64,000 nt of DNA, taken from contig CAVYJB010000001.1 in the NCBI GenBank assembly GCA_963768835.1, forward strand, positions 216,420-280,419. The letters run 5' to 3'. This stretch comes from an uncultured bacterium. Lineage in GTDB: Bacteria > Patescibacteriota > Minisyncoccia > UBA6257 > GWB1-50-10. Positions 3,141 through 58,149 of the stretch are shown one piece after another. Position 1 is the stretch's first letter; every line of letters begins with the position of its first letter. The position numbers and the translations under genes are program-made. The notes below the pieces were generated by a model, which saw nothing but the letters and a program-made list of their open reading frames with translations, made no database searches and was not told the origin of the DNA.

Positions 3141-3626
3141 ATGAGCGCTGTCGCTGAAGCGCCTGTCATGCAGGAGAAACGAGCGGTCTTACCCTACAAG
3201 CCTCTCGTCTCCGGCAAACTGTGGAACCGGCTGGTCGGTCGAATTCAAAAGGACCACCCGGAGATAAAAAAGAACGAAGCGGAAGCCATCATGGATGCGG
3301 CGCTGGGTTTCCTGAAACTCTGCGCGAATCATCCGGAGAATCGGTTTGCGCCTTCGGAGAAGGTGGATATCGGATGGCATACTTTCCTGATGTACACGCG
3401 GGAATACCACGAGTTCTGCAGGGACCTTGGCGGGAACTACATCCACCACGTCCCGAACGACGATCCGAGGGTACCGCAGGAACGCGGAGCTCTGGGCAAG
3501 ACGGTCCGGTTCATGCGGACCAACGGTGTCACCTTCAGCCCTCGGCTCTGGTTTGGGAATGCCGACTGCACGGTGGACTGCAGGGATGACTGCTCGAATT
3601 GTTCACAGAATAGCTGCACCAAGTAA
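3141..3626 (+). CDS. hypothetical protein with Cys/Asp-rich C-terminus (DCTVDCRDDCSNCSQNSC)
   Basis: AGGAGC RBS 8 nt upstream; intact 161-aa ORF; C-terminal C-x-x-D motifs resemble the downstream precursor core. Confidence 0.55.
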   Translation: MSAVAEAPVMQEKRAVLPYKPLVSGKLWNRLVGRIQKDHPEIKKNEAEAIMDAALGFLKLCANHPENRFAPSEKVDIGWHTFLMYTREYHEFCRDLGGNYIHHVPNDDPRVPQERGALGKTVRFMRTNGVTFSPRLWFGNADCTVDCRDDCSNCSQNSCTK

Positions 3627-3713: not shown

Positions 3714-4292
3714 ATGCCGAACTCGTGGGATGAGACATTCTCCTCCGGACGGGAGTTCCCTCCCCTGAACCGCTTATTCCTGAAGAAGCTCCTTTCGGCT
3801 GTCAGCCCGAACCCGAAGACTGCGCTCGACCTGGGCTGCGGCACAGGGGACGATCTCGTCCTCCTCGCATCGGCGGGACTTGCAGTGAAGGGCGTGGATG
3901 GCTCGGCGGTGGCCATCAAGAAAGCTAAAACTAAGACGGCCGGCCGGGGCATCGAATTAATTGAGCATGACCTTGAAACCCTCACGGCGGCGGATTTGCA
4001 GAATCGGAACTTCGATATCGTCCTTTGCAAGCTCACTATCGCATTTATCACGGACCGCGAGCGGTTCCTTGGCCTCATGGCGGAGTTTCTCTCCCCCGCC
4101 GGCACCTTCGTACTCATCACGCCGGTGGTCTACGCCGGAGAAACGTACGCCGAGCCGCGGGTCAAGAAGATCTCGGTGGAGTTCAACGAGACTCTCTCGC
4201 TCCTGAAACGTCATTTCAAGACCGTCTCGGTCTTCCAGGAAGATTTCGCGGGAGCAGAGGAGGTGAAAATCGCCTTCTTGGCCCGCAACTAG
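3714..4292 (+). CDS. class I SAM-dependent methyltransferase
   Basis: LDLGCGTGDDLVLLA glycine-rich SAM-binding motif I. Confidence 0.8.
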   Translation: MPNSWDETFSSGREFPPLNRLFLKKLLSAVSPNPKTALDLGCGTGDDLVLLASAGLAVKGVDGSAVAIKKAKTKTAGRGIELIEHDLETLTAADLQNRNFDIVLCKLTIAFITDRERFLGLMAEFLSPAGTFVLITPVVYAGETYAEPRVKKISVEFNETLSLLKRHFKTVSVFQEDFAGAEEVKIAFLARN

Positions 4293-4403
4293 TATCACAA
4301 CAACAAGCTGTCGGACCGCGCGGTTTTTGATTTGACGCACTGCGGTGTTGTTGTATAGTCAGGCCAGCAGAATCCACACAATAAAACATGGAAGGGGTGC
4401 GCG

Positions 4404-4658
4404 GTGGAAACGAGCAAGAAGAAGAAACAGCCTTTTCTGGTCCGGTGGCTATCGAGGATTTGGAGTTGGCTCATAAAACCTTTCCCAATGGAGATCTCAG
4501 ATTCCAGAAAATCTGGGGAGGCGGAAGATCCAGAACTCGGGGGCTCCTACTACAGCCCGCTTAATGGCAGGGATTACAAAGAAAGAGGGCGACGTGAGAA
4601 TTTCGAGAATTACAGCGGCCCAGAAAGAGATTCTCCCGGCAGAGACGAGTTCTTCTAA
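4404..4658 (+). CDS. small hypothetical protein (GTG start, low complexity)
   Basis: 84-aa ORF, Lys/Arg/Glu-rich, weak signals. Confidence 0.25.
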   Translation: METSKKKKQPFLVRWLSRIWSWLIKPFPMEISDSRKSGEAEDPELGGSYYSPLNGRDYKERGRRENFENYSGPERDSPGRDEFF

Positions 4659-4794
4659 ACGGAGGTGTCGAGGAAAGACATGGGACGCACCGCACCAAGG
4701 ACATAACGGTGACAACACAAAAGGCCTGACGGGGTAATCCCATCAGGTCTTCCTTTTCATATCGTTTCTCTACCGATTTCGCAGCTATAGGGCC

Positions 4795-4824
4795 TTGACT
4801 TACGACAGCAATTATTGGTATATT
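4795..4824 (+). promoter_or_regulatory. sigma70-like promoter upstream of RiPP precursor gene
   Basis: TTGACT - 17 nt - tgGTATATT (extended -10) about 50 nt upstream of precursor ATG. Confidence 0.5.
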
Positions 4825-4872
4825 GTTCCTAGCAATGCACTTCACAAACGAAGAGAAAGGAGGCAAGCGGAG

Positions 4873-5139
4873 ATGAGCAAAAAAGGAAGCGTAGCGATTG
4901 AGAAATTGGACAGAATCGCTTCTCGTAGCGCTCGGCTTTCGGCACAGCACAGTGCTATCGGTAACGCATCGGGATGTCCGGTTGATGATTGCAGATCCGA
5001 CGGCGAGGGCTGCCAAGTCGATGTCGACCCAGGACAGTATCGTCCTGGTATTCCGTTCGCAGACAGCTGCGAATGTGAAGACGACGGCTGCTTCGGAGAC
5101 AAGGACAGCTGCGGAGAATCGGGATGTAGTTCTGTCTGA
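4873..5139 (+). CDS. RiPP precursor-like peptide, Cys/Asp-rich core with four C-x-x-D repeats
   Basis: AAAGGAGG RBS 9 nt upstream of ATG at 4873; 88 aa; leader-like N-terminus then CPVDDCRSDGEGCQVDVD...CECEDDGCFGDKDSCGESGCSSV; immediately upstream of a radical SAM/SPASM gene. Confidence 0.6.
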   Translation: MSKKGSVAIEKLDRIASRSARLSAQHSAIGNASGCPVDDCRSDGEGCQVDVDPGQYRPGIPFADSCECEDDGCFGDKDSCGESGCSSV

Positions 5140-5146
5140 AACTCAT

Positions 5147-5171
5147 GCGAGGGGGTAGTATACCCCCTCGC
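5147..5171 (+). promoter_or_regulatory. perfect 9-bp hairpin between precursor and radical SAM genes (attenuator/processing site candidate)
   Basis: gcgaggggg-tagtata-ccccctcgc directly after the precursor stop and before the RBS of the next gene. Confidence 0.5.
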
Positions 5172-5194
5172 TCATTACTATAGGAGGTGGGAAA

Positions 5195-6475
5195 ATGGTT
5201 TCTAAGAGATTTAAACTCTTCAAAATCCCGGAAGGTGGGGATACTGTTGTTTTTGTCCCTGCGCTCGCGAGAGTGTACAGAATTCCAGAGAAAATCGCTG
5301 CGGCGTTACCGAATTTTGTCACCGCAGAGATGGCTATTGCCGAGGATGCGGAATGGAAATCTCATGATCGAAATTTCACATCTGTCGTTCTGGCGCTGAC
5401 AAATAAATGCAATCTGCAGTGTGTTTACTGCTATGGCGATTTCGGACGCCCGAGAAACGGGACCGGGATAGTGATGGAATCAAGAATCGCAAGGGCTGCA
5501 ATCGACTACATCGTCGAGCAGGCTAGAGGAACAGACAGGAAGAGAGTTCATCTGGGCCTGTTTGGCGGCGAGCCCACACGCGCCTGGGAACTTCTCATCG
5601 AATCGGTGGGTTATCTCCGCTCTACAACACATCGCAACGGACTCCAGAGTACGGCCGGGATTATCACGAATGGCTTTATGAATTCCAAGATGGCCGGCTG
5701 GTTGGCGACCAATTTGGACGGCGTCACCATTTCTTTTGACGGCTATAAATCTATCCAAGATTCACAGAGAAGCGGCAGTTTCGAGAGAGTATTTGCTACC
5801 GCCAAAAAGATTTATGGCTTAAGTCCAAAGAAATTAACTTTCAGGGCCACGGTCACCGAATCAAGCGTGGGTTCATTGAGGGAAATAGTCGAGTTCTTCG
5901 GGATCAACTTCCCTGGATGTGTCCAAAGGTACGAGCCATTATTTCCGATGGGTAGAGGCGTAGGTTCCGGCACCGACGGGAAATCACTGCATTCAGTATT
6001 CTTCGATAAATTTCTGGAAGCAGTACCAACGGCGCGGAAATACGGTTCAAAGCTAAAGACGTCCGTATTGCGATTAAGGGGCGGAGAACACGATGTTTTT
6101 TGTGGTGCATCCGGCAGGAATTTTCTTGTGACTTACGATGGCAGCGTAGTGTCTTGCAATCGAATGATGGAAGCTAATATCAACGAGGCCTCCGATTTCT
6201 TCCACTATGGCCGCTTTGATAAGAAGTCGTGTAGCTTCATCTTCGATGAAGAAAAATACGCGAGACTCAAAATCCTGTCTCTGAAGACAGTTCCTGACTG
6301 CGAGAATTGCTTTGCACAATTCAGCTGCAAGGGAGATTGCCCAGCCAATAAGGCCGTAACCCTCCCCTCTTCTTTCTGGAAGGAAAAAAGTTATCGGTGT
6401 AGCGAAATACGTGATTTCCTACAGAAAGTCCTTTCTTATGTTCTAGATAATGGAACTGATGGGCTGTTCATCTGA
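5195..6475 (+). CDS. radical SAM/SPASM domain peptide-modifying enzyme
   Basis: CNLQCVYC (CxxxCxxC) cluster, GGEPT SAM motif, C-terminal SPASM-type CENCFAQFSCKGDCP; ~60-aa N-terminal extension (possible RRE). Confidence 0.9.
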   Translation: MVSKRFKLFKIPEGGDTVVFVPALARVYRIPEKIAAALPNFVTAEMAIAEDAEWKSHDRNFTSVVLALTNKCNLQCVYCYGDFGRPRNGTGIVMESRIARAAIDYIVEQARGTDRKRVHLGLFGGEPTRAWELLIESVGYLRSTTHRNGLQSTAGIITNGFMNSKMAGWLATNLDGVTISFDGYKSIQDSQRSGSFERVFATAKKIYGLSPKKLTFRATVTESSVGSLREIVEFFGINFPGCVQRYEPLFPMGRGVGSGTDGKSLHSVFFDKFLEAVPTARKYGSKLKTSVLRLRGGEHDVFCGASGRNFLVTYDGSVVSCNRMMEANINEASDFFHYGRFDKKSCSFIFDEEKYARLKILSLKTVPDCENCFAQFSCKGDCPANKAVTLPSSFWKEKSYRCSEIRDFLQKVLSYVLDNGTDGLFI

Positions 6476-6582
6476 ACAGCTCATTTTTTTATGCCATCAA
6501 GAGGACCGCGGGCGTAAGCCCGTGAAGTTTCATTTGTCAATTGATTTTTCTTATGGTTTAATAGGTACAGGTAGATACAAGG

Positions 6583-7836
6583 ATGCTGAGTTTTAAGAGG
6601 TTAGAAAATCGAGGTACGCCCATCTACTGGATGGGTATGAATTCCGCCGAATCGCTCGCCATCGGTATATTTGTCAACGCCGGGACACGCGATGAGCGGT
6701 GGCCTGAGGAGGCCGGGCTGGCTCATGCACTCGAGCACATGAATCTGCGAGGGACCAAGAAATTCCCTACAAGCGAATCCTTGAACAGCTATATTGAGGG
6801 AGTCGGGGGAAACAAGGGTGCGTGGACGGACAAGGAAGGGACTTTCTACTACGGCCGAGCTCCCTACCAATACCGAGAGAGACTGTTCGAGGTCCTTTTT
6901 GAGGCAGTTCAAAATCCCCTGCTTCTCGAGGAGCGTATCTCCGTAGAAAGGGGAAGTATCCTGAAGGAAATAAGAAGGAAGATCGATAATCCGCCTGAAA
7001 CGCTTTATGACCTTACGCTAGATTTCATATTCAAGGAACACCCGCTTTCGCGAAAGACACTGGGAACTGAGGAAGCGGTGGAAGGATTCCAGAGGAAGGA
7101 TTTCGTGAAATTCAGAGAGAAATTCTACAACTCGGCGAACTATGTTATTTTCTTCATCGGCAACGCAGGAGAGAACGAGGTAATAGAATTGGTGGAAAAA
7201 TACTTCAAGAATGAAAAGTTCTCCGGAAAGAACATACGAAAGGAAGTGGCCTGGAAACCGGGGAGTGAGCAGGCGCTCTATAAGCACCGGGATGTAAGCC
7301 AAGCCTATTTCTCTTTGGCAGCACCCTTCCGCGAGACACCGCGCGATTATAGCTCATTAAGGGCGCTGGATATGTTCTCAGTTATGATATCGGGCGGCAC
7401 CGCTTCTCCGCTGTTCCAAGAAATGAGAGAGAAGCGGGGGTTGTGCTATACAGTCCAATCCGGTGTCCGGCATTTCTCGGATCTGGGCTTCTTCTACATT
7501 CAAGCCGGTACAGATCCAAAGCAATACAGGGAAGCTATCGACACGGCACGCAATGTTATGGAGAGAAGCAAGAAGGATGATGCGTTGCTCCAGAGAACCA
7601 AGAAATACCGGCTCGGCCAGTTGCGGTTGGGCTACGAGAATACCGGTGATATCCTGGGCACCGCGGCGCACCAAATGCTTTCGTACGGAGAACCGAGGGA
7701 TTTCTTCAAGATAGAGAAAGAGATCAATGATTTTAAAATCAGCGACATCGAGAAAGTTGTAGATTCATACCTAAAACCCGATCTGATAAAGGAAGTTGCT
7801 ATATTCCCGAAGCAAAGCGAAGCCCCTTCGAACTGA
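6583..7836 (+). CDS. M16 family (pitrilysin/insulinase-like) zinc peptidase
   Basis: inverted zinc motif HALEHM (HxxEH) near the N-terminus, 417 aa. Confidence 0.85.
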   Translation: MLSFKRLENRGTPIYWMGMNSAESLAIGIFVNAGTRDERWPEEAGLAHALEHMNLRGTKKFPTSESLNSYIEGVGGNKGAWTDKEGTFYYGRAPYQYRERLFEVLFEAVQNPLLLEERISVERGSILKEIRRKIDNPPETLYDLTLDFIFKEHPLSRKTLGTEEAVEGFQRKDFVKFREKFYNSANYVIFFIGNAGENEVIELVEKYFKNEKFSGKNIRKEVAWKPGSEQALYKHRDVSQAYFSLAAPFRETPRDYSSLRALDMFSVMISGGTASPLFQEMREKRGLCYTVQSGVRHFSDLGFFYIQAGTDPKQYREAIDTARNVMERSKKDDALLQRTKKYRLGQLRLGYENTGDILGTAAHQMLSYGEPRDFFKIEKEINDFKISDIEKVVDSYLKPDLIKEVAIFPKQSEAPSN

Positions 7837-7857
7837 CCCGGGACAATCAAAAGAATA

Positions 7858-8526
7858 ATGGTTTATAAGTTGAGCCTGACAAAATCCAGCGACAGGTTTG
7901 TCGAAGGGGTCTTTTGTAAGTCCATGAAGGATCTCGGTAAATTTTATGCCATCCACTGGACAACAAATACACCCAAAATTGTCTTACTGAAAGACAGAAA
8001 AACAATTGACTTGTTGCGTGCGAGAAAAACTGAACCGTGGCTCGTCGGTTGGGCCAACGGAGAAATGCGGATTGTTTTCGTATTGGACAGAAGGAGTCTG
8101 GGGAAATACAGTTCCCACAAATACTCTAAGGAGCATTATTCCTCTTTGATCAAACACGAACTCAGCCACCTATTCTATAAAATACTCACCGGCGACAAAC
8201 GGGGCCCCGTATGGCTGTCCGAAGGCGTGGCAATTTATACCTCTGGCCAACATAAATCGAGAACAGTGCCTAGCGAATTCAAGAATTTCTTGACGTTTTA
8301 CAGTCATGGCGGTTCTGGAGTATACGCAGAATCGGGCTTCGTTGTTGAAATACTTGTTAGAAACTTTGGCAAGAATAAATTACTTAAACTTATAAAATCT
8401 TTGCGAAGCATATCCGATGAAAAGCAATTCAATAGGGTCTTTAAAAGAATTTATGGATTTCAGATTAGTTATAGAAGCATAAATAACTATTATACAAACA
8501 GCTCTCCTCCACGATTAAGAACATGA
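7858..8526 (+). CDS. HExxH zincin-like protein, paralog 1 (peptidase MA-like)
   Basis: HELSH followed by WLSEGVAIY (gluzincin third-ligand-like). Confidence 0.65.
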   Translation: MVYKLSLTKSSDRFVEGVFCKSMKDLGKFYAIHWTTNTPKIVLLKDRKTIDLLRARKTEPWLVGWANGEMRIVFVLDRRSLGKYSSHKYSKEHYSSLIKHELSHLFYKILTGDKRGPVWLSEGVAIYTSGQHKSRTVPSEFKNFLTFYSHGGSGVYAESGFVVEILVRNFGKNKLLKLIKSLRSISDEKQFNRVFKRIYGFQISYRSINNYYTNSSPPRLRT

Positions 8527-9215
8527 GGAAGCTCCGCTTCTATTTCAACAGAAATCTAGACAAGTTCATGGCTGCCCAGTTTCTCGACGAAAAAATGGGC
8601 GGCATTGATTTTGGGGTAAATATTGTTAAGCTCCATCCCCTACTAAGGTCCTCCAAAAAGGATCGGGGGGCGAGAAAGAAAACATTGGATAAATATTTCA
8701 AACAATACTACCGTAGCCATCGCCGTGAAATGTCTCAGAAGGCATCGAGGATAAAAGAGGCGTGGCGTGACGTCGAGGACGAGTTTGTGATCACGACGGA
8801 ACGTTTGTTAGGTGGATTCCGTTTCCCATCCGGCCGGTACATCGCATACCCCTCGATTGTGGACTGTAACCCCCGCTTTCTGGTATCAAAAACGTTCCAG
8901 TTCTACTATCGGAAGGTCCCCACGGATGCCGTGCACACCATTGCCCACGAGCTTCTGCACTTCATCTTCTTTGCATTCGTCAAATCGAGGTTGAAGAATG
9001 CCATCAAGAAACTTCCTGAGGAGAAGCTCTGGGACCTCTCGGAACTTTTCAACGTCATAATTCTTCAATCGCCGTCTTACCGGAAACTCATCAATCCGCA
9101 CTATGCCCATCCCTATCCAGACCACCAAAAGTACGTCTCTCGATTTGAGACCGCCTATCGAAAGTCCCGCGCCATAGAGGAATTCATCCGGAACGGGATC
9201 GCAATTATAAAATGA
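8523..9215 (+). CDS. HExxH zincin-like protein, paralog 2
   Basis: HELLH motif; ATGA start/stop overlap with upstream gene. Confidence 0.6.
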   Translation: MRKLRFYFNRNLDKFMAAQFLDEKMGGIDFGVNIVKLHPLLRSSKKDRGARKKTLDKYFKQYYRSHRREMSQKASRIKEAWRDVEDEFVITTERLLGGFRFPSGRYIAYPSIVDCNPRFLVSKTFQFYYRKVPTDAVHTIAHELLHFIFFAFVKSRLKNAIKKLPEEKLWDLSELFNVIILQSPSYRKLINPHYAHPYPDHQKYVSRFETAYRKSRAIEEFIRNGIAIIK

Positions 9216-10036
9216 AGCACAAGAAGAGCATCGGCAGCATGAAAACACCCAGACTCGAATATAGAAATTCCTATGAAGTGTTCGTTCTTTTCGCTGCCCT
9301 GAACGCGCTGGGGTACGACGATGAGAGCCGGATCAGCGGGATGTCCCTTCTCCGAAGGAGAACAAGAGGGTCCCTGCGCAGGCATGTTCGGAGCCAAAAA
9401 TACCCTCAGCTGAAGAGATTCTTTCATGCACACAGCCCGTGGCATCTTCTGATCTTCACGCTCCGCGGCAGTTCAATCCCGGCCCTCCGGAGTTTCTCTA
9501 AAGAACCAGCAGTGCGGGCGCTATGGAGGGAAGCGCGAACGCGCCAAGAGGCGGAGTTGGGAAAAATCTCCACGCTTTTCGCGCGTGAAACGGTGCGCCT
9601 TATTCGACTCGTCGGAAAACCGGTTCGCCCCATCGACCGAATTGTGCTTATCCCAAATCTCCTTGATGCGTACTGGCGCGGATACTGTCTCCGCGTGAGG
9701 CGGGTCTGCTACATCGTAGTAGGGCCAGGGGCCGAGAAGAACGGCGGCGAGCTTATCCGGCACGAACTCCTGCATCTCCTGGCCCCGAATATCCACCTCC
9801 CGCTCCCCGCTCACTCGCCCAAAATCCGTGCCCGCCTTTCGCGCCAGGGTTACTCTAACCAATCTATTATTAATCGTGAGTATGTCGTCCGCGGCCTAAA
9901 CCTTCTCTATGAGTCAGAGTTTTTGAGTAAGAATATCCGCGCATCAGTCGTACGAGAACGAAGAAATTTCCCCTATATTAGGAAGGTTATAAAATCTCTG
10001 AAAACAAAGATGGGGCTGGCATTTTCGAAATCATGA
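9212..10036 (+). CDS. HExxH zincin-like protein, paralog 3
   Basis: HELLH motif; translationally coupled. Confidence 0.6.
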   Translation: MKHKKSIGSMKTPRLEYRNSYEVFVLFAALNALGYDDESRISGMSLLRRRTRGSLRRHVRSQKYPQLKRFFHAHSPWHLLIFTLRGSSIPALRSFSKEPAVRALWREARTRQEAELGKISTLFARETVRLIRLVGKPVRPIDRIVLIPNLLDAYWRGYCLRVRRVCYIVVGPGAEKNGGELIRHELLHLLAPNIHLPLPAHSPKIRARLSRQGYSNQSIINREYVVRGLNLLYESEFLSKNIRASVVRERRNFPYIRKVIKSLKTKMGLAFSKS

Positions 10037-11040
10037 AACTCTTCATCCAAATCTCAAAATTACATAACTACTTCTTCTTTGTTTCGAACCTTGCCGAGTG
10101 GAGCCCCTATTGTCGAAAGCAATACAACGAAGTCTGGCTTCGCGGTAATCCTCTCACTGCACCAGAGCGGACAGCGCTTAAAAAGGTGGCTGGTGTCTTT
10201 AAGAAGCATGGGTTCTCGGATCGATTCGCCTCATCCGAATCTCCTGATGTGATATGGGACACCATCGCGAAAACTCTGAAACCGGATGAGTATGCGGCAC
10301 TTCGGAACGCTTTTGCTACGCTCACTCCGCGATTTGAGAAGGTATGGCGGCGCGAGAAGGGAAATCTAATGCGGGTGCAAAAGGAAATGAAGAAATCGCT
10401 CTCGCTCTCCAAAAGAGCTCTTGGTGTGTTAGAAACTCTTTACGGCGCTCCGTCAAAAAGTTTGACCCTCGAGATATTCCTCCTCACAAATCCCATCTCC
10501 AAGCGCCTAGTGGGAGGCGGAAGCGGCATCGGGGAAAACAAAATCGAGCTTGAGTGCTCAAGGGTGACGAAACACAACAACCCAAAAGGGTGGCTGGGCA
10601 GGGTTATACTCCATGAATTCGTCCATGTGGCGCTTGAGAAAGAACTCCGAGACAAGATCGGGGCCTTTGTAGGCAGCAAGGATTTCCGAAAGCGCCACGA
10701 ACCGTTTTTGAAGCACTCCGCTATCTATTGTGAGACTCGATCGTTCGTCGGACCTATCAAGGAGATGGTTGCTGTATCCCTTCTCCCCGAAGGATATCTA
10801 GCCGAGAAGATTTATGGCGCGCGCGTCGTCGAGAGCCTGAAACAGCGGAACGCGGTCCGGACCCACACCTTCCGGAAGGACTACTACGACCTGATGCTTT
10901 TCTCTCTGTGGGGGCTCTATGATATCGCCAAGGAGTACTCCGACCAGCGGAAGCCGATTGACAGGAGGTACATCGAAACCGTGGTGCGGAATTGGGAATC
11001 CTTCGAGAGCATGGATCTTTCGAGGTTTGACCCCGAATAA
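10033..11040 (+). CDS. HExxH zincin-like protein, paralog 4
   Basis: HEFVH motif; translationally coupled. Confidence 0.6.
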   Translation: MKLFIQISKLHNYFFFVSNLAEWSPYCRKQYNEVWLRGNPLTAPERTALKKVAGVFKKHGFSDRFASSESPDVIWDTIAKTLKPDEYAALRNAFATLTPRFEKVWRREKGNLMRVQKEMKKSLSLSKRALGVLETLYGAPSKSLTLEIFLLTNPISKRLVGGGSGIGENKIELECSRVTKHNNPKGWLGRVILHEFVHVALEKELRDKIGAFVGSKDFRKRHEPFLKHSAIYCETRSFVGPIKEMVAVSLLPEGYLAEKIYGARVVESLKQRNAVRTHTFRKDYYDLMLFSLWGLYDIAKEYSDQRKPIDRRYIETVVRNWESFESMDLSRFDPE

Positions 11041-11041
11041 A

Positions 11042-11077
11042 AGGCACGCGACATCTTTTCAGATAGCGCGTGCTTTG
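11042..11077. terminator. bidirectional terminator-like hairpin between convergent genes
   Basis: aaggcacgcg...cgcgtgcttt: 7-bp GC stem flanked by A-run and T-run. Confidence 0.4.
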
Positions 11078-11162
11078 GGGCCCAATGCTTGAGTGATATG
11101 CCCGAAAAGCGTTCTTTGATTCTCAATAAACTCTTTGACTAGCCGGCTTCTTTAGCGATTAG

Positions 11163-11930
11163 CTATTTCAGATACCCCCTTAATATCGGTTCATGAAGAA
11201 AGGAGTGCCCACTTCCACACACCACAAAGAGGCTCTTGCCTGTGCCCCACTCCTTCCTAAGCCGTTTCAGAATTTCCGCATCTCGAATATCGTCTGAGGT
11301 TCTCGTGATTTGATTCACAATGGTGTCCGCTCGATTCGGATTAACCATTCTATTGAAGAGGCGCAGGTTGTGAAGGCTGAAGGCCTTCCCCAACAGCCTT
11401 TTATGCACAGCTTTCATTTTCGGAAAGGTGAAATCTTTCCAACCGAATTGTCTGACATATATCGCCATGACCTCCGCCATCCATTTCTTAAAGTCCGGTC
11501 GAGGGTTATGACGTCCCCAGGTATCTACCAAGCCCGCAAACCAGTGATAATAGATCTCATCTTTTGAAAACTCCTTCTTAAGAGCGGCAGCGACTCTGTC
11601 GCGGGAAGGCTCGGGGCAAATGATCGGGATATTCGCATGGTGAGCCCAGAGCGTCACGACCGAACCTTCGGCCCCGCTTTCTATCGCCGCCTTTTCGTTA
11701 GCGTGAACCTTACGCAAGTTTCCCTCAATGACTACTAATTTCTTGGTACTCCGCGTTTTCAGGAACGTTTTCCAGAATTTCCGCAGAATGGAGTATTGCT
11801 TATCTTTCGGATCGTGGCTGTGATTCGCACCGAAATAGAAAAGGACTTGATTCCGTTTCTTGATCTCAAAGCAGTAGGGCACGGGCTTGCCTCTGCTTAG
11901 TTCTTCGTATTTCTCGCGATCAACTTTCAT
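11163..11930 (-). CDS. hypothetical protein (possible TraB/GumN-family-like)
   Basis: 255-aa intact ORF; LFYFGANHSHD resembles the TraB/GumN N-terminal motif; weak. Confidence 0.5.
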   Translation of the reverse strand: MKVDREKYEELSRGKPVPYCFEIKKRNQVLFYFGANHSHDPKDKQYSILRKFWKTFLKTRSTKKLVVIEGNLRKVHANEKAAIESGAEGSVVTLWAHHANIPIICPEPSRDRVAAALKKEFSKDEIYYHWFAGLVDTWGRHNPRPDFKKWMAEVMAIYVRQFGWKDFTFPKMKAVHKRLLGKAFSLHNLRLFNRMVNPNRADTIVNQITRTSDDIRDAEILKRLRKEWGTGKSLFVVCGSGHSFLHEPILRGYLK

Positions 11931-12047
11931 TGTCTAGTTACTATGAATTAAAACGGTTTCCGACGGGGATACTGTCAATATACCCCGACCTGTGGATAAC
12001 TCGCTTCAAAAATACCGCGGCGCGAAACAAGCATGAGGCTTGGTCTG

Positions 12048-17976: not shown

Positions 17977-19638
17977 CTACTGCGCCAGATATTTGTCCAG
18001 GTTCAAGCCTTGGACATTTGTATGAGCAGTGTTCGGCCAGTTGGCGGCATCGAAGCGGGGCGCCGTCAGGCGGTAGGAGACCTGTCCGGCAGCGCTCCCA
18101 CGAATGGTGAGTGTCTCGCGGGAGACGTCCTTCTCGTACCACACGTCCCCGTCGAAGGACGGGAGAAGGAGCACCGCCACTTGCCTGAAGTTCGAAGCAA
18201 GATTCGCCGCGTTGGCGAAAAGCCAGAGATCGGATCCTTTCGGCGCGCCAGCAAGGTCAAGGGTTGCCGCATAGCCATTCCCCTGTTTTGTGAGCGTCGC
18301 CGTCCCCGCCGTCTCCTCCTTCTGCCCCGTCATACCGGTTCCGTAGGTCGCGTACTGTTTGCCACCAATGGTGTAAACCGGGTCCCAGGTAGCGACTGTG
18401 ATCTTCCCCCCGGCCAAGGAAAGCCATCCGCCGGCCGCGCTCGTAAGGGTCATGTTGCCGCTCGTGCCCGCCTGGAACCAGAGAGTCCCACCGTTGATAC
18501 CGATGGCATACTTGTTCGAACCATCATCCCAAAGAATGAGCCGGTCGCCACTTGCAATAGCTCCCGCCCCGCCGGGCCCAGAGTAGCCGCCATTGGAGAT
18601 AAGGACGGCGCCGTTTACATATAACGCCTCACCCACCACCGAAGAGTTCCCGACATCCATCTTGTAGCCGGTGGAATTGGGGTAAAGACCGCTTCCGGAG
18701 AGGGTCCAGTAAGGCGATGCAGCGCCCGCGGAACCCGTGGGGCCAGCGGGGCCGTTCGCGCCCGCGAAACCTCCGGTAGGACCTCGCGGACCGGTAGAGC
18801 CCTGCGCACCCGCGAAACCTCCGGTCGGACCTTGCGGACCGGTAGGGCCGTTTGCGCCCGCGAAACCTCCGGTCGGACCTACGGGCCCGGTCGAGCCGTT
18901 TGCTCCGTTCGTGCCGGTCGGACCTCGCGCACCCGTCGGACCCGCGGGACCCGTCCCGCCCGCAGAACCGTTCGTCCCGGCGGCTCCCTGTGGACCCTGC
19001 GGACCTGTTGCTCCGTTAGAACCGTTTGAGCCAGTAGGCCCCCTGGCGCCCGTAACTCCTCCGGGACCGGTTGCGCCGATCGCGCCGTTCGTGCCGGTCG
19101 GACCTTGGGCACCCGTAGGACCGCCAGGGCCTGTACCGCCAGTAGAACCGTTCGCGCCATTCGTGCCAGTCGGACCCCGCGGACCGGTCGGACCAGTTGG
19201 GCTTGCGCCATTCGCTCCCGCAGGACCTCCGGGGCCTGTGGGGCTCGTACCGTTCGCGCCCGCGGGCCCCGTGGAACCTGTGGGGCCCTGCACGCCAGTC
19301 GGACCCGCGGTCCCCGAAGGGCCGGTAACACCGGCGATTCCCTGGGGACCCGTTGGAGAAATTCCATTCGTGCCTGCAGGCCCCATGGGACCCGAAGGGC
19401 CAGTCGCACCTTGCGCTCCATGCCAGTTCACCCACGATGAACTGTTGCAAATTAAGTGTGACCCCGTCGTGGAGGAGAAGTAAACCGTACCGGCGTTAGC
19501 TGAGTTGCAGGTGACGGGCGGCGTCGAGGTCGGCACAAAATTGAGCGTTGTAAGTTGCTGCCCGCTCGCAACCAAAGCGACGCCCATTCCGGCAATGAGG
19601 ATGACGCCAGCGAGGTTGTGGAGAGTGCGTCGATCCAT
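17977..19638 (-). CDS. collagen-like triple-helix repeat protein (GPT/GXY repeats) with conserved C-terminal globular domain
   Basis: signal peptide, about 80 Gly-X-Y triplets rich in GPTG/GATG, C-terminal ~240 aa shared with 19651..21369 and 31237..32307. Confidence 0.8.
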
Positions 19639-19650
19639 AGCAGTACAGGC

Positions 19651-21369
19651 TTATCGGGAAAGGAACGTGTCGAGGTTCAGCCCTTCTGTTGCTTCGTTGG
19701 AGGTATTCGGCCAGTTGGCACTGTCAAAGCGAGGTGCGGTCAGACGATAGCTCACCTCGTACGGTCCGGCATCGGAAGCGCTGCTGTTCTCTCGGCCGAG
19801 AATCGTGAGTGTCTTCGCAGCTATGTCCTTCTCATACCACACGCGACCGGGGAACGAGGGGGTCACGAGTGCCGTGAGCCCGTCGAAAGCGTTCACAAGG
19901 TTGGTCGCCTTTCCGAAAAGCCAAACGTCCGAACCCTGGGGGAGATTATTAAAATCAAAAACGTACGCGAGGAGACCTGGCGTACCCGTCGGCTGGAGAT
20001 CGACAAGCCCCGCCGTCTCCTCCTTTTGTCCTGTCATACCGGTTCCGTAGGTCGCGTACTGTTTGCCACCAATGGTGTAAACCGGGTCCCAGGTACCCAC
20101 GGTAATTTTCCCCGCCCCTCCATAAGGACCGTTGCCCACGGTGAGTGTGCCCCCAGAGCCGTTTGAAAGACTCATATATCCGCTCGTGCCCGCTTGGAAC
20201 CAGAGGTTTCCACCGACGATCCCGATGCTGTACTTGTTCGAACCATCATCCCAGAGGATAAGCCGGTCGCCCGTGCTGATACTGCCCGCGGCTCCTGGGC
20301 TGTTCACCGTGCCGGGGTTTATGAGCGCAGCGCCCGTGACATTCAGTTTATAATTCCCCGGCGAGGAGTTCCCGATACCGACATTGTAGGTAGTGGAATT
20401 CGGGTAGAGACTGCTTCCGGAGAGGGTCCAGTAGGAACTCCCTGCGCTGCCCCCAGGACCCGTGGGGCCGGTCGAACCGGTTGGGCCCGCAGGACCCTGA
20501 ATACCTGTAGGACCAGCGATACCGGTTGGGCCCGCAGGACCCTGAATACCTGTAGGACCAGCGATACCGGTCGGACCCGCAGGACCCTGGATACCCGTAG
20601 GACCTACGCCACCGTTCGTGCCTGCAGCACCTTGAAGACCCGTGGGGCCGTTGGGACCGGTAGGGCCTACACCACCGTTAGAGCCGTTCGAGCCTGTATT
20701 GCCAGTGGGACCGGTAGGACCCGCACCACCGTTGGAACCTCCGGCGCCTGTAAGACCCGTGGGACCGGTGGGACCGGTGGGACCCCCACCGCCATTGGAG
20801 CCGGCAGAACCCGTGAGCCCCGTCGGGCCTGTGGCACCCGTGGGACCTGCACCACCGTTAGAGCCGTTCGAGCCTGCTGCACCTTGAAGACCTGTCGGGC
20901 CTCCCGGACCTGTTGAACCATTGGTTCCTGCGCTTCCCGTCGGACCTGTCGGGCCTGTTGAACCGTTCGAACCTGCACCTCCCGTGGGACCTGCCGAGCC
21001 AGTAGGTCCGGTCGGACCCTGCCCTTGACCCGTAGGGCCGGTCGCACCCTGAAGACCTGTGGGACCGTTCGAGCCGTTCGCGCCCGCCGAGCCTGAGGGA
21101 CCCGTAGGGCCGGTCGCGCCTGTGGCGCCAGCGTAGGTACTCCACCCTACACCATTACAGATGTACTCATTATTATCTGTGCCGAAATAGACAGCTCCTT
21201 TATTGGATCCGCCGCTGCAGCTGAGAGGCGCCGAAGCCTGAGGCACGAATTTAATGCTTTGAAGCAACTGGGCCTGCGCAAGGTAGGCAACACCGCTTGC
21301 GACAACTGCAAGCGCGAGTCCGATAACGACATGCTCGATCCTAAAATGTTTCCGCATGCGGGGGAACAA
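19651..21369 (-). CDS. collagen-like triple-helix repeat protein, paralog
   Basis: same architecture as 17977..19638; conserved [28 protein letters not shown] block. Confidence 0.8.
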
Positions 21370-25987: not shown

Positions 25988-27028
25988 ATGATGAGACCAA
26001 TGACGACACCTCGTCACATCCTCGTGACCGGCGGCGGCGGATTCCTGGGGTCAGTGCTTGTCCCTCTTCTCCTCGACCACGGGTACCACGTGACTGTCCT
26101 TGACCGTTTCTTCTTCGGGCGTGGCACGCTTGCCGCGTGCTCCTCGAACCCCCGCTGCAAGCTTGTCGAAGCCGACACGCGCACCGCGCCGGAGACCCTC
26201 TTCCAGGGCATCGATTCCGTCGTCGACCTTGCGGCGCTCTCGAACGACCCCTTGAGCGAGCTCAAACCCGAAACGACCCTCGACATCAACTTCCACGCCC
26301 GGGTGCGCACCGCGACGCTCGCGAAAAGGCACGGAGTGGGACGGTACGTGCTTGCCTCGACCTGCAGCGTCTACGGGTTCCAAAACGGCGTTCTCACAGA
26401 GACCGCCGTTTTGAATCCGCTCACGACCTACGCGCGCGCGGCCGCGCGCGCCGAGGAACGCACCCTCGCGCTCTCCGACGGAACCTTTGCGGTGACCGCC
26501 CTGCGGCAGGGAACGCTCTATGGCCTTTCGCCGCGAATGCGCTTCGACATCGTGGTGAATACCCTCACGCTGTCGCTCTTCCGCGACGGGAAACTCCACC
26601 TCAACGGGGGCGACCAGTGGCGTCCCCTCCTCCATGTGGGAGACTCCGCCCGCGCGTTCCTTGCCGTGCTGGAGGCGCCCCCCGCGGCCGTCGGAGGCCA
26701 GGTCTTCAACGTCGGTGCAACAGCCCAGAACTTCCAGCTGAACCACCTCGCCACGCTCATCGTACGCACCCTCGATATCCCGCCAAGGATAGAGACGACG
26801 GAGGCGTACGACCATCGTTCGTACCGAACCTCCTCCGCGAAAATAGAGCGGACCCTCGGCTTCATGACGCAGAAAACGCCGGAGCACGGCGCGCGGGAGG
26901 TGTACGGGGCGCTCCGCACGGGAAGCGTCACTGCAGAAAAAAGCACCATCACGCTTGAGTGGTACAAGCATCTCCTCTCAGGCGACCCGGGGATTCTCGA
27001 TCCCCGCGATATCTCCCACACCGCATAA
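25988..27028 (+). CDS. NAD-dependent epimerase/dehydratase (SDR family)
   Basis: ILVTGGGGFLGSVLV Rossmann motif. Confidence 0.85.
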   Translation: MMRPMTTPRHILVTGGGGFLGSVLVPLLLDHGYHVTVLDRFFFGRGTLAACSSNPRCKLVEADTRTAPETLFQGIDSVVDLAALSNDPLSELKPETTLDINFHARVRTATLAKRHGVGRYVLASTCSVYGFQNGVLTETAVLNPLTTYARAAARAEERTLALSDGTFAVTALRQGTLYGLSPRMRFDIVVNTLTLSLFRDGKLHLNGGDQWRPLLHVGDSARAFLAVLEAPPAAVGGQVFNVGATAQNFQLNHLATLIVRTLDIPPRIETTEAYDHRSYRTSSAKIERTLGFMTQKTPEHGAREVYGALRTGSVTAEKSTITLEWYKHLLSGDPGILDPRDISHTA

Positions 27029-27034
27029 CGGCCT

Positions 27035-43518: not shown

Positions 43519-45013
43519 AAGTTCATCTCTCTCAAAAATATTTTGGACGCTTCGCGTCTTCTCCTGCGTTTCGGCCAGAGAGGAAAAGGGTTTTTTGAAA
43601 TCCACTACGAGCGTTCCCGAGGCAAGGCGGCGGTTCGAGCCGATGGCGGCAAGAAAATCTTTCATCGGTATCGGATTTTCTTGGTTAGTCAGATTTAGGG
43701 CTTGGTTGGCTTCGATTATCCAGTTTCTGAAAAGTCCGAGCCAACGATTTCCCTTTCGCTCAAAATCGCCCAGTTGCTCGTCGAGCGTCTTCTTTTCGGA
43801 CAGGAGCCGGTTCTTCGTCTCCTGATATTCTTGAAGCTCGAACGAGCCGGAAAGATAGCCGTCGTTGAGGCGGTCAATCTTCATTTTAACGGCGGCTATC
43901 TTCGTCCTTAGATTTTGCGCGAAAGCGTCCGACGAGCGGCGGGCTTCGCCCGTTTCCCCGTCCAGTTTCAATAAATATTTATCTCGCCACTCGTCGGGCA
44001 AAGAAGCTTTTTGGACTAGCTCCTTAACTTGTCCGGCAAGAACCTCCTCCCGCACAAAGCGGGTTTGCGAACAGACCTGCGTCTTGCTCTTGAAGGTGCA
44101 GTGATAGTAATGGTAAGTCCTGCCGTTCTTCTTCACCTTCCGCTCGCCCGTGATGGCATAGCCGCACTCGCCGCAGAGTCGCAAACCCGAGAAACGGGAA
44201 ATTCTTGTCGCCGCGCTTTTTGCGGGGCTTGCCGTTCAAGACCAGTGCCTCCTGTATCTCATCAAAAAGCTTCTTGGAAATCATCGGCGTATGCGAACCC
44301 TCGTGCACCTCGCCACGATAGCGGAAATGGCCGTAGTAGAACGGGTTGGTCAAAATCTTCTGAATGGAGGATAAGGCGAGGGGTTTGCCGTCCCTGCTCG
44401 TGAGCCCCACGGAAAACATCTTGTCCCGTATGGCCGTCTTCGTGTACCGCCCCGTGGCAAAAGCTTCAAGACATTCCTTCACTTTATTAAAAGTATTTTT
44501 ATCCGGCTCGATCGTACGCAAGCGCGGCTCGTTGAAATATCCCATCGGAGCTTTTGCCGACAGCTCGCCCCGCCGTATCTTCTGCCGTATGCCCCGCAAG
44601 ATGTTTTCCCGCAAATTGTCGGTGTAATACTTGGCCTGCCCGAACGCGACCGATAACATAAATTTTCCTTGCGGGGTCGGCTCAAACCAGAAGGTAGGAA
44701 ATTTGAGCGAAACAATATTGCCCGTGTCCACGAGATAGATGACCCTGCCGCCGTCCACGCTATTCCGTGCCAGTCGGTCGGGGTTCCACGCCAAGATGCC
44801 GGAAGCGACGCCCTGCTCAATCTGCGCCACCATCTCGCCGAACACAGGGCGGCCGGGTTCCTTCGCACTCTGGCTCTCGGTGTATTCGCGGACGATGAAA
44901 AGATTATTTTGCTCCGCGAACGCGCGAAGTTCGGCGAGCTGGGCTTCAATTGAAAGCACTTGACGCTCCTCGTCCTCCGACGACTTCCGGCAATAGATAA
45001 AATATTTATTCAT
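43507..45013 (-). pseudogene. large serine recombinase, frameshifted (N-terminal resolvase/recombinase domains 44024..45013; C-terminal zinc-ribbon/coiled-coil 43507..44184)
   Basis: N-ORF has [10 protein letters not shown] catalytic Ser region; C-ORF starts with zinc ribbon [12 protein letters not shown]; frames differ by 1 nt near 44175-44195 within ccc/aaa/ggg runs; C-terminus reads DELWWT through the tRNA-Ala 3' end. Confidence 0.8.
43513..43636. repeat. inverted repeat A, left copy (~125 bp, starts on tRNA-Ala CCACCA)
   Basis: reverse complement matches 45092..45216 with 1 mismatch seen. Confidence 0.85.
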
Positions 45014-45091
45014 AAGTTTGTACCGACAATTTTATAAATCTTCGCCGCCATCGGCTCTTGCGCGGATGAGCGCAAAACAAATTCCATTTGT

Positions 45092-45216
45092 AGAACCGCC
45101 GCCTTGCCTCGGGAACGCTCGTAGTGGATTTCAAAAAGCCCTTTTCCTCTCTGGCCGAAACGCAGGAGAAGACGCGAAGCGTCCAAAATATTTTTGAGAG
45201 AGATGAACTTTGGTGG
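45092..45216. repeat. inverted repeat A, right copy (ends in TGGTGG = inverted CCACCA)
   Basis: reverse complement of 43513..43636. Confidence 0.85.
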
Positions 45217-45478
45217 TGTTTGTATCATACAATTCGGACGCATTTCAAGCAAAATTCCTGACCGATTTACCCCATCACTTACCCCATCATGCGCTACCCC
45301 TCGGAGTGATGGGGTAGCAAGTCGAGATTGATCTGAAAAATATGGGCTTCGGGATGTCGCCGGAGAAAATCCAAAGTCCTACTTCACTCCGCTAGACCCC
45401 CTCCGAGATGGTGTGCTCAGCCCCTCGGCCTGCTGGCCTCGGGACTTCGCGTATGGCGCGCCCAAATTCCTCCCCCAA
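45211..45478. repeat. inverted repeat B, left copy (~268 bp, begins at the inverted CCACCA)
   Basis: reverse complement matches 48199..48465; contains internal palindromes (gctacccc...ggggtagc). Confidence 0.85.
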
Positions 45479-45528
45479 AAATAATATACCAAACTGGTAT
45501 ATTCCACAATCGATTATAACGTGTTAGT

Positions 45529-45753
45529 ATGTCTATGTCGAAGAAATACCAGCCAAAGTATCGGAAGCTAACACAGAAACTCCGCGCAGCACGCCTAGAA
45601 GCAGGATTTACTCAGGTAGAGGCGGGTAAGCGATTGAAAAGGCCGCAGGCTTATCTATCAAAAATCGAACGAGGTGAGCGCGGCGTGGATGCGGTAGAAT
45701 TGGCAGAGTTTGCAAATGTGTACGGCAAGAATATTAATTATTTCATAAAATAA
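45529..45753 (+). CDS. XRE-family helix-turn-helix transcriptional regulator
   Basis: LRAARLEAGFTQVEAGKRL...YLSKIERGER HTH_3 pattern; AT-rich. Confidence 0.85.
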   Translation: MSMSKKYQPKYRKLTQKLRAARLEAGFTQVEAGKRLKRPQAYLSKIERGERGVDAVELAEFANVYGKNINYFIK

Positions 45754-45758
45754 ACGGC

Positions 45759-47375
45759 ATGGAAGGAAGTGAGGATAACAAGGTTTTTTCCACTAGAACC
45801 ATCGTCATTACGATATTAATTATCGTGGGAGTTGTGTGCCTGGTAGCTTATATTAGCAACTCCTTTAGTAATAATGGAATTAGTACAAATAACAACACCG
45901 CTAACCAAAATTATTATTCGGCGCAAGGAAACTTCTCCGCCTATTTCCCCTCGCAACCAACATACTCGACTGCTTCTCAAGAATTAACCGCTAACAATGA
46001 AGTCGTTGAAGACGATTACTCTTGGGGACAAAGCGATGGATTCTGGAAGTCCCAACTTGAAGCGACTTATGTCGCTTCACCTTTTCCAAATTCAGCGTTG
46101 ACGCCGCAAAAGAATCTTGAAAGCGAGATACAATATACGGGCAACTCGAGCGCGTTTAATCTCATTTCCTCTACCTCTACAACATTAGATGGTTTTCCGG
46201 CCATCGCTTATGCCATTCAATCCAAATCAAATCCAACCGAATACAATATCGGGAAAGATGTGCTTACCAATCATGGTTTGTATATGCTCGGATATTTTTA
46301 TAGCGGCCAAGAAAATAAACAGCTAGAAAATACTTTTCTCAATTCTTTAACCTTTGGGACTCCTATCAACGCGAACGCGCCGCAAGCACCATCATCGCCA
46401 TCGCAACAAAATACGCAACCAACAAACCAGCAATCGCAAAACTCCGCTCCGAGTACCTCTGGTAGCTTGACGACGACATTAATCAATCGGATTGAGCCAT
46501 CCATTGTTGAGATAAATTGCTATTCAGCAAATGACAGCGTAGTAGTGAGTGGATCCGGCACATCCAATCTCAATAACGGAGTTCTTCATATTACAACTAA
46601 TTATCACGTTTATAATGAAGCTAGCGGAGGAGGAACGCCCACTTGCTATGCTGTTTATCCAGAGCCGCCAGATTTTTCGTACAACGCAGAATATGGAGAT
46701 TATCAACTCGTATTAGTTAGCCATGAATATGATACCGATACCTATGAAGATGAAGCAGAATTTACCATCGGCGCACTATATCCCTCAGCAACGCCATTGA
46801 ACCCTCTGCCATCAATTAATAATTTGCCGCTCACGGGAAGTGGCGGGGTAGGTTGTCCCGATGCAACTGTTGGCGATACCGTAACCGTTTTCGGCTATCC
46901 GGCATCGGGCAACTTACTTGGGATTTCAGAAACGGTAACGCAAGGAACGATAGCCGGCATTCTCCCGGGGCCGATTTATAAATTCGATGGCGCAATTGAT
47001 CATGGTAACTCTGGCGGCCTTGCTGTTTTGAATAAAGATAGTTGCGTTTTAGGCATTCCAACCTTAGGGGACTCGGGGCTTACGGCAGGAATCGGTTATA
47101 TTCAATCATTTAGTCTTGCAAGCCAGCCAGTAACGCAAACTAATGCCCAAATATGTCAAAACAATTATGGTGCATATAGTGTATGGAATGGACAAACCAA
47201 CAGTACAGGTGGGCCGACATGCGATTGCGAAAGAGGTTATGAGTGGAACTCGAACCAGACGGCGTGTGTTGCGCTTACGCCAGATCAAATATGCGAACGA
47301 GATATTGGTGCGGGAAGTTATTATCTGGGCTATGATAATCCAAACGGCACCTTGGCGTGTAGTAGCCCTAACTAA
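45759..47375 (+). CDS. membrane-anchored secreted trypsin-like (S1 family) serine protease with Cys-rich C-terminal domain
   Basis: N-terminal TM anchor; TNYHV (His), D, and DHGNSGG (Ser) catalytic triad context; Asn/Ser/Thr-rich linker; 10 Cys in last 90 aa. Confidence 0.7.
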   Translation: MEGSEDNKVFSTRTIVITILIIVGVVCLVAYISNSFSNNGISTNNNTANQNYYSAQGNFSAYFPSQPTYSTASQELTANNEVVEDDYSWGQSDGFWKSQLEATYVASPFPNSALTPQKNLESEIQYTGNSSAFNLISSTSTTLDGFPAIAYAIQSKSNPTEYNIGKDVLTNHGLYMLGYFYSGQENKQLENTFLNSLTFGTPINANAPQAPSSPSQQNTQPTNQQSQNSAPSTSGSLTTTLINRIEPSIVEINCYSANDSVVVSGSGTSNLNNGVLHITTNYHVYNEASGGGTPTCYAVYPEPPDFSYNAEYGDYQLVLVSHEYDTDTYEDEAEFTIGALYPSATPLNPLPSINNLPLTGSGGVGCPDATVGDTVTVFGYPASGNLLGISETVTQGTIAGILPGPIYKFDGAIDHGNSGGLAVLNKDSCVLGIPTLGDSGLTAGIGYIQSFSLASQPVTQTNAQICQNNYGAYSVWNGQTNSTGGPTCDCERGYEWNSNQTACVALTPDQICERDIGAGSYYLGYDNPNGTLACSSPN

Positions 47376-47383
47376 TAAATCAA

Positions 47384-52130: not shown

Positions 52131-52414
52131 GGTGTAATTTTACCCTCGTCCTCTACACGATGTAAGCCCCAAGCGGGACTTTTGGAACCGCCCCCTATCC
52201 CTAAATATCCACCATTTTCCACCCAGTCATCGAACATAACACCCGCAAGCCCGTACAGTGCCCCCAATACGCGTTCCAATTCGTCGTCTGGGACGCTTTC
52301 TAGGCTTGGGTCTACCTTTCTAGCTTGGTCAACAGATAACATGGATTTCATAGGCACCCGCCAATCTACCAAAATCAACCATTTCCTACCGTTTACTACC
52401 GATAAAATCGGATG

Positions 52415-57673: not shown

Positions 57674-57700
57674 GACTTATAAATCTTTAGCTCTTCATTG

Positions 57701-58141: not shown

Positions 58142-58149
58142 GTTGTATT

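Follow-up and report, generated by a model that had tools for sequence, protein, structure and literature searches.

The DNA studied here is a stretch of 64,000 nucleotides, called the window below, from an uncultured bacterium of the Patescibacteriota (GTDB lineage GWB1-50-10; assembly GCA_963768835.1, contig CAVYJB010000001.1, positions 216,420 to 280,419 of the forward strand). It contains four consecutive genes on the + strand, named H1 to H4 in window order, which encode proteins with an HExxH motif. H1 (7858-8526) encodes a soluble gluzincin-type protein of 222 residues, which belongs to Pfam Peptidase_MA_2 and has HELSH at residues 100-104 and Glu122 in the segment WLSEG. H2 (8523-9215) encodes a 230-residue protein whose HELLH occupies 142-146 and in whose family Glu174 and His201 are invariant, and H3 (9212-10036) a 274-residue distant relative of DUF4932 with HELLH at 184-188 and invariant Glu223. 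H4 (10033-11040) encodes 335 residues, among them HEFVH (194-198) and the invariant Glu244, Glu253 and Glu258; like H2, it has no family model. All four genes start with ATG, and the H1/H2, H2/H3 and H3/H4 junctions all consist of ATGA, a stop/start overlap of 4 nt. The listing of open reading frames (ORFs) thus bears out the lengths, overlaps and motifs described in an earlier, sequence-only reading of this DNA. The increase in length from H1 to H4 that was pointed out there is real, and comes from an ever longer N-terminal part ahead of the motif. None of the four proteins has a transmembrane segment, and their isoelectric points (pI) lie between 9.6 and 11.2.

Each protein has exactly one HExxH, and the motif is not a chance occurrence, because its H, E and H columns are invariant in the homologue alignment of each of the four proteins and its expected frequency is low: by a rough estimate, about 0.008 per protein of such size, and about 1e-9 for four consecutive ones. 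A joint alignment of 71 sequences from the four families has no invariant columns other than these three. The family alignments also reveal a Glu downstream of the motif, which is near-invariant in H1 (Glu122, at +18) and invariant in H2 (Glu174, +28), H3 (Glu223, +35) and H4 (Glu244, +46). HExxH followed by such a Glu is the signature of the gluzincins, clan MA(E), and the two histidines of the motif and the downstream Glu are the presumed zinc ligands in H1-H4.

The sequence-only reading took the four proteins for diverged paralogues. This does not hold in any recent sense: H1-H4 are not recent duplicates, because pairwise BLASTP between them finds no significant similarity, and their families are independently distributed. 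A recent tandem duplication was therefore rejected, the four proteins belonging to four separate families. More remote relations appear when profiles are compared: H3 and H4 match with a probability of 81% (E 1e-5), H1 and H3 with 61%, and H1 and H4 with 40%, and the alignments of these three place the sheet and pre-motif region and the HExxH in register. Profile comparison detects no sequence relation of H2 to H1, H3 or H4.

The AlphaFold2 (AF2) models of H2 and H4 are confident (predicted local distance difference test, pLDDT, 95.6 and 90; predicted template modelling score, pTM, 0.92 and 0.86, respectively). Both show the same order of elements: N-terminal helices, a very long backing helix, a three-stranded sheet, the HExxH helix and a Glu helix, the conserved Glu being located within the helix that follows the HExxH helix. 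The succession of backing helix, sheet, HExxH helix and Glu helix is known from minimal gluzincins. Foldseek searches of the PDB with H2 and H4 give only non-significant matches, and the tops of these lists consist nearly entirely of zincins (M1 peptidases, selecase, IrrE/PprI, collagenase and snapalysin). The earlier concern that HExxH might lie at non-equivalent positions of unrelated folds is thus not what is found, since the motif is in register in H1, H3 and H4 and the topology is common to H2 and H4. All four look like gluzincin-type metallopeptidase-like proteins, which would bind a metal and hydrolyse peptides.

H1 is the only one of the four that passes the cut-off of Peptidase_MA_2 (PF13485; 40.2 bits for a gathering score of 32.4), so that the assignment of all four to a peptidase-MA-like gluzincin family stands for the gluzincin type, and for the Pfam family only in the case of H1. 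The H1 family has 591 representatives in a library clustered at 50%. Its alignment has H100, E101 and H104 as invariant positions and E122, in "WLxEG", as a nearly invariant one, which corresponds to the M1 spacing HExxH-x18-E. The family profile matches the active-site segments of leukotriene A4 hydrolase (LTA4H) and aminopeptidase N in the PDB (E 4e-5 to 1e-4). Assignment to the M1 aminopeptidases themselves was rejected: H1 has neither the GxMEN motif nor the accessory domains, and only about 50 active-site residues match.

The H2 family comprises at least 172 clusters, with H142, E143, H146, E174 and H201 invariant, and the H3 family 49 clusters, with H184, E185, H188 and E223 invariant. 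The H4 family is smaller (16 clusters and 30 metagenome loci; H194, E195, H198, E244, E253 and E258 invariant). The relatives of H2, H3 and H4 are found almost exclusively in metagenome-assembled genomes (MAGs) of Patescibacteria, and the nearest are only 45-57% identical. None of the three window proteins reaches a Pfam or NCBIfam model, and sequence searches of the PDB with their profiles give no meaningful match. When whole families were scanned, the weak matches obtained were all to hydrolytic zincins. Those of the H2 family are to DUF3267 (34 of 46 members) and M78; the DUF3267 match is confined to the HExxH segment (profile positions 4-28). Membership of H2 in the DUF3267/S2P group was rejected, as H2 has no transmembrane helices (maximal 19-residue hydropathy 1.28; soluble alpha/beta protein in the AF2 model). 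DUF4932 (PF16286) is matched by seven of 43 members of the H3 family, and one of these, P0065, passes the cut-off (43.3 vs 28.7 bits); the H3 of the window itself does not match it. In the H4 family the weak matches are to SprT-like proteins (12 of 16 members) and DUF2268, and flagellinolysin is weakly matched by 14 of the 71 members of the four families together.

The genomic contexts of the relatives connect three of these families to radical S-adenosylmethionine (rSAM) peptide maturases of three different subtypes, each with its own conserved precursor peptide. The loci compared are designated by L numbers, L001 being the window's own contig. Among the metagenome loci of H4 relatives that have enough downstream DNA, 17 of 21 have a convergent gene for an rSAM protein of 354-380 residues 10-220 bp downstream; the rSAM beside the H4 relative of L070 is cut to a fragment. 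L003-L006 have an H4 relative with a convergent rSAM too. The H4-partner rSAMs are anSME/DynA-like (243-298 bits), and the precursors encoded upstream of them have acidic cores in which Asp, His, Trp and Tyr abound, such as "...GYDDEHDQEHHDDWTWNDH" and "...CHTDGPSYND...". Such a composition is typical of substrates of cyclophane- or darobactin-type cross-linking. Precursors with cores of this kind ("DEHDQEHHDDWTWNDH", "CHTDGPSYNDSSGSDDFENW") are seen at the anSME/DynA-like rSAMs of L003, L004, L067, L061 and L072-L081. Two further observations concern these loci: L076 has two tandem H4-like genes (509-1132 and 1211-2167, + strand) ahead of its rSAM, and a 358-residue CxxxCxxC protein of L061 (295-1371, - strand) itself carries HExxH.

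The composition of these cores bears on the idea that the HExxH proteins are not hydrolases at all but tailoring enzymes, namely Fe(II)/alpha-ketoglutarate (alpha-KG) HExxH oxygenases like ChlH, BpmH and PflC, which would hydroxylate Asp or His of the cross-linked peptide. There is a precedent in zincin-fold alpha-KG-HExxH enzymes that are fused to, or encoded beside, rSAM cyclophane synthases (PMC12636437), and suitable residues abound, the cores at H4 relatives being rich in Asp, His and Trp and that of the window precursor in Asp. However, neither H1-H4 nor the 71 family members match TIGR04267 at E ≤ 1, all weak matches are to hydrolytic zincins, the Foldseek PDB lists contain no alpha-KG-HExxH structure, and H1 has the M1-type HExxH-x18-E with "WLxEG". 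Oxygenases thus seem quite improbable.

The five H3 relatives examined all face an rSAM of 440-478 residues, with a conserved precursor between the two genes. This H3-type precursor ("..RKIVYLKDH....C..ITCPGxCxCASK", L053-L059) lies downstream of the rSAM and is convergent with the H3 relative; in L059 (7845-8027, - strand) it overlaps the 3' end of the H3 relative gene. For H2, an rSAM is found within 400 bp in 20 of 46 genome loci. It is FibroRumin-like (256-283 bits for a cut-off of 400), and a Cys-rich precursor of its own type, "...CDCTACSSCRCTPCK", is encoded either upstream of the rSAM or immediately ahead of H2. Precursor, rSAM and H2 stay together across three gene arrangements. Beside FibroRumin-like rSAMs in L013, L014, L017, L020-L022, L024, L060 and others there is a precursor family with the pattern "...(V/I)xGxIxLEDAVNARPCDCTACSSCRCTPCK", which looks, from its sequence, like an undescribed Cys-rich family of ribosomally synthesised peptides with post-translational modifications (RiPPs).

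For H1, the loci of two relatives, the closest examined, were looked up, in addition to incidental finds; one relative is flanked by rpsG and fusA, the other by thrS and recA. Such positions would be expected if the HExxH proteins were housekeeping oligopeptidases of a streamlined genome, whose adjacency to rSAM genes has no specific meaning and whose array results from local accretion. The large size of the H1 family and the unrelated neighbours of many H2 relatives go in the same direction. However, adjacency to rSAM genes at the frequencies given above (17/21 for H4, 5/5 for H3 and 20/46 for H2) is far above chance for a class which, by our own rough estimate, makes up about 1% or less of genes; it is also kept through the three gene arrangements, and every family has an rSAM subtype and a precursor type of its own. 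A housekeeping role is therefore judged unlikely.

More distant H2 and H1-like relatives are encoded immediately downstream of an rSAM on the same strand, in an operon layout, and several loci combine members of more than one family. L010 has the order rSAM, H1-like, H2-like, H4-like, plus an H2 followed by an rSAM; L021 has rSAM, H2 and a second rSAM which is convergent with an H4-like gene; L018, L028 and L041 have H2 plus an H4-like gene. M16, H2 and H1-like genes follow one another in L030, and in L045 an rSAM is followed by an H1-like gene, with H2 farther along. L056 has H3, H3-like and H2-like genes together with acetyltransferases and an ABC protein; L059 has M16, H4-like and H3 genes and three rSAMs; and L080 combines H4 with an rSAM and a gene of the H1 family. 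The four-gene array itself is seen solely in the window's own contig. The earlier reading called such a tandem array uncommon; arrays of two and three genes recur elsewhere. It is true that these genes are not a standard component of the described RiPP classes, but the H2, H3 and H4 families habitually adjoin rSAM/SPASM maturases in Patescibacteria.

In the window, the array is preceded by the genes of a precursor and an rSAM maturase. A precursor peptide of 88 residues, recognised by its sequence, composition and motifs, is encoded at 4873-5139 (+ strand). Its leader is basic (pI 11) and its core, residues 35-88, is acidic (pI 4.1), with eight Cys and six CxxD/E motifs; repeated Cys...Asp/Glu motifs, by which ranthipeptide-type precursors are recognised, are therefore present. 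A sigma-70-like promoter candidate, a match to the consensus only (TTGACT-18-TATATT with TG), precedes the gene at 4795-4824 (+ strand), and an 11-bp stem-loop, a possible attenuator, is found directly past its stop codon (5147-5171, + strand; -23.2 kcal/mol, z -4.1). The following gene (5195-6475, + strand) encodes an rSAM/SPASM peptide maturase of 426 residues, identified with NCBIfam and phmmer, whose best NCBIfam match is the PapB-type ranthipeptide maturase, at 115 bits, below the cut-off of 340. It shares its subtype with the rSAMs found beside H3 relatives, three of which (in L056, L058 and L059) are matched by phmmer with E values of 1e-51 to 1e-55. A terminator-like hairpin with a U-tract overlaps its stop codon (6458-6492, + strand; z -4.2). 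Next comes the gene of an M16 (insulinase-type) peptidase of 417 residues (6583-7836, + strand; Peptidase_M16 4.5e-23, M16_C 1.5e-32), which has an inverzincin motif, HALEH, and is followed by H1.

M16 and H1-H4 look like one transcription unit, M16 first, possibly partly uncoupled from precursor and rSAM; the hairpin at 6458-6492 may separate the precursor and rSAM genes from those of the peptidases. On the other side of the array, a stem-loop (11041-11076; z -3.5), likely a bidirectional terminator, lies between H4 and a convergent gene for a protein of 255 residues (11163-11930, - strand). Relatives of this protein are encoded beside H4-like and H2 genes (L041, 8912-9796, - strand; L032, 8708-9934, - strand), and the one in L041 matches TraB/PrgY/GumN weakly, below the cut-off (E 3.9e-4). 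The TraB/PrgY/GumN family includes proteins that act on peptide pheromones. The 255-residue protein gene may belong to the same gene set as H1-H4. The G+C content of the cluster (window positions 4000-12000) is 47-51%, compared to 55-63% in the flanks, which, together with the 45-57% identity of the nearest relatives of H2, H3 and H4, is compatible with horizontal acquisition.

Upstream of the promoter candidate, a 161-residue protein (3141-3626, + strand; Pfam PF27765, UCP032817-like) has a Cys/Asp-rich tail, "NADCTVDCRDDCSNCSQNSCTK", which resembles the CxxD motifs of the precursor core, and its gene is followed by that of a SAM-dependent methyltransferase (3714-4292, + strand). The 161-residue protein could be a second, long-leader substrate, with the methyltransferase as a tailoring enzyme of the cluster.

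In the rest of the window, two adjacent genes (17977-19638 and 19651-21369, both - strand) encode large proteins with collagen-like Gly-X-Y repeats, for which the Scl/Lcl adhesin models are far below cut-off; the majority of the window's other large proteins match nothing in NCBIfam. Other stretches of low G+C (43-50%), at 44000-48000 and 52000-60000, may be further acquired segments, and a protein with an adenine DNA-methyltransferase domain is encoded inside one of them (55874-57673, - strand). A tRNA match of 96 nt (2042-2137, - strand) is found by Rfam and not by ARAGORN; conversely, a tRNA-Leu (26943-27032, - strand) is found by ARAGORN and absent from the Rfam gathering list. A defence-system or phage reading was dropped, PADLOC and PHROGs being without matches.

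Precursors of the H2, H3 and H4 types were looked for in the window and none was found. The leader of the window precursor, "KKGSVAIEKLDRIASR", nevertheless aligns with the leaders found at H4 relatives ("MGKKIIAKFLDRIAAR", "KKIIAKFLDRITT", "QKIISKALARINA", "NAIKSALERINSR"), the core of the match being KLDRIASR in the window and FLDRIAAR in the H4 type. CxxD also occurs in some H4-type cores ("CHTDG"), as it does, with CxxE, six times in that of the window. Since the window rSAM is of the H3-partner subtype, the leader motif seems to travel with H4 and not with the rSAM subtype. This would suggest a leader-recognising role for H4 and makes it the best candidate for recognising the leader of the window precursor.

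Taken together, the signature, the predicted topology and the genomic context suggest that H1-H4 are zinc peptidases which, with the M16 peptidase, mature or trim the rSAM-modified precursor, a reading to which we give a probability of about one half. M16 and H1-H4 would constitute a five-gene processing unit behind the genes of the precursor and its rSAM/SPASM maturase. The substrate and the order of events are proposed as follows. The rSAM would first introduce cross-links into the Cys/Asp-rich core; these would probably be thioethers from Cys to Asp/Glu, located at the six CxxD/E motifs. The leader would then be removed, and the stretches that are not cross-linked trimmed, by M16 and H1-H4, with H4 recognising the leader.

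Several results count against this proposal. The leader similarity is short, and BLAST by itself gives it no significance (E 4.1). The M16 peptidase could suffice for leader removal without the others. HExxH with a carboxylate is also a 2-His-1-carboxylate set, and the HExxH enzymes known from RiPP pathways that have a zincin-like fold are Fe/alpha-KG oxygenases (PMC12636437). The two closest H1 relatives examined have the neighbours described above. Moreover, both an rSAM and an H2-type precursor are absent from 26 of the 46 H2 loci, and therefore these proteins are not obligate partners of RiPPs. Finally, in the closest relatives of H2, H3 and H4, the gene is convergent with that of the rSAM and lies outside its operon.

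This last arrangement, a separate convergent transcription unit beside the biosynthetic genes, would also suit immunity or resistance proteins, each of which destroys one kind of rSAM-modified peptide in the cell; the window would then stack one determinant for its own product and three orphans directed at peptides of neighbours. In L008, L010, L015, L016 and L018, H2 comes right after a precursor gene and on its strand, an arrangement that is classic for bacteriocin immunity. Orphans with no rSAM make up about half of the H2 relatives, and the H1 relatives examined are orphans too; H2-, H3- and H4-type precursors are missing from the window. On the other hand, the more distant H2 and H1-like relatives sit in an operon layout right after the rSAM, the H4-like leader of the window precursor fits an enzyme that recognises leaders and not one whose target is the mature peptide, and the minimal modules of three genes show no exporter. 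Besides, soluble cytoplasmic proteases are uncommon as bacteriocin immunity proteins. Immunity is thus considered rather unlikely.

The processing proposal can be extended beyond the window. H2, H3 and H4 would then form an unrecognised guild of minimal soluble gluzincins, the cognate leader-specific proteases of three classes of rSAM/SPASM peptides across Patescibacteria, and the window would be a translationally coupled, possibly heteromeric line of five peptidases (M16 and H1-H4) for a ranthipeptide-like precursor with multiple CxxD. This extension is possible, though on balance doubtful.

For many rSAM RiPP clusters, those of ranthipeptides, SCIFF-like and cyclophane peptides, no leader peptidase is known, which blocks the production of the mature products. 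If H2, H3 and H4 are cognate proteases, three unannotated families would acquire a function and could include the missing protease of many such clusters. They would also provide new marker genes for RiPP mining in Patescibacteria, whose natural products are, to our knowledge, almost unstudied. The minimal modules of three genes (precursor, rSAM and zincin), such as those of L013 and L017 with an H2 relative or of L003 with an H4 relative, make this directly testable, and would be equally informative if the proteins turned out to be immunity proteins or oxygenases. The four-gene array is a natural case in which to ask whether multiple proteases work one after another or in a complex.

Metallopeptidases of several kinds are already associated with RiPP pathways. 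AplP-like M1 zinc peptidases, which remove the leaders of class III lanthipeptides, are multidomain proteins of about 850 residues with GxMEN. H1 resembles them by its gluzincin motif HExxH-x18-E and its matches to M1 structures, but it has only 222 residues and lacks GxMEN and the flanking domains, and H2, H3 and H4 have other Glu spacings. M16B peptidases take part in rSAM peptide pathways, as AlbE/AlbF for subtilosin and PqqF/G for pyrroloquinoline quinone (PQQ). The window resembles these systems in that a metallopeptidase gene (6583-7836) directly follows that of the rSAM/SPASM maturase. M16 enzymes are inverzincins (HxxEH) with a clamshell fold, unlike H1-H4, and we know of no M16 system in which four further HExxH proteins are encoded behind the M16 gene.

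The alpha-KG HExxH enzymes ChlH, BpmH and PflC/PosC (IPR026337/TIGR04267) have a zincin-like fold; initially annotated as metallopeptidases, they introduce hydroxyl groups at Asp and His (PMC12636437). H1-H4 and the 71 family members differ from them by the lack of a match to the family model, and their third conserved residue is Glu. TmcP, the HExxH leader peptidase of TMcin, is an intramembrane protein of the DUF3267/S2P type with four transmembrane helices (PMC13252029). The H2 family shares with it weak matches to DUF3267, but H2 has no transmembrane helices. Selecase, the minigluzincin of Methanocaldococcus jannaschii, and IrrE/PprI (M78) are small soluble zincins with the order of helices and sheet predicted for H2; both are among the best Foldseek matches of H2, which are non-significant (probability 0.33, template modelling score 0.45 on the target). 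In contrast to them, H2 and H4 have an additional stretch of N-terminal helices, 90-140 residues long.

DUF4932 has once been mentioned as a "putative metalloprotease" that accompanies rSAM/SPASM genes and LanB-like genes in clusters of the human microbiome (PMC5410138). One member of the H3 family, P0065, exceeds the cut-off of the model, and both groups adjoin rSAM/SPASM genes, but the H3 of the window and most of its family fall short of the model, and DUF4932 is itself uncharacterised. A literature search on these families in Patescibacteria, on FibroRumin and on the DUF names found no description of the pairing of H-family proteins with rSAMs and precursors, or of overlapping arrays. The involvement of metallopeptidases in RiPP pathways is known; what appears to be new is the existence of three unmodelled small gluzincin-like families, each of which has its own rSAM subtype and its own type of precursor.

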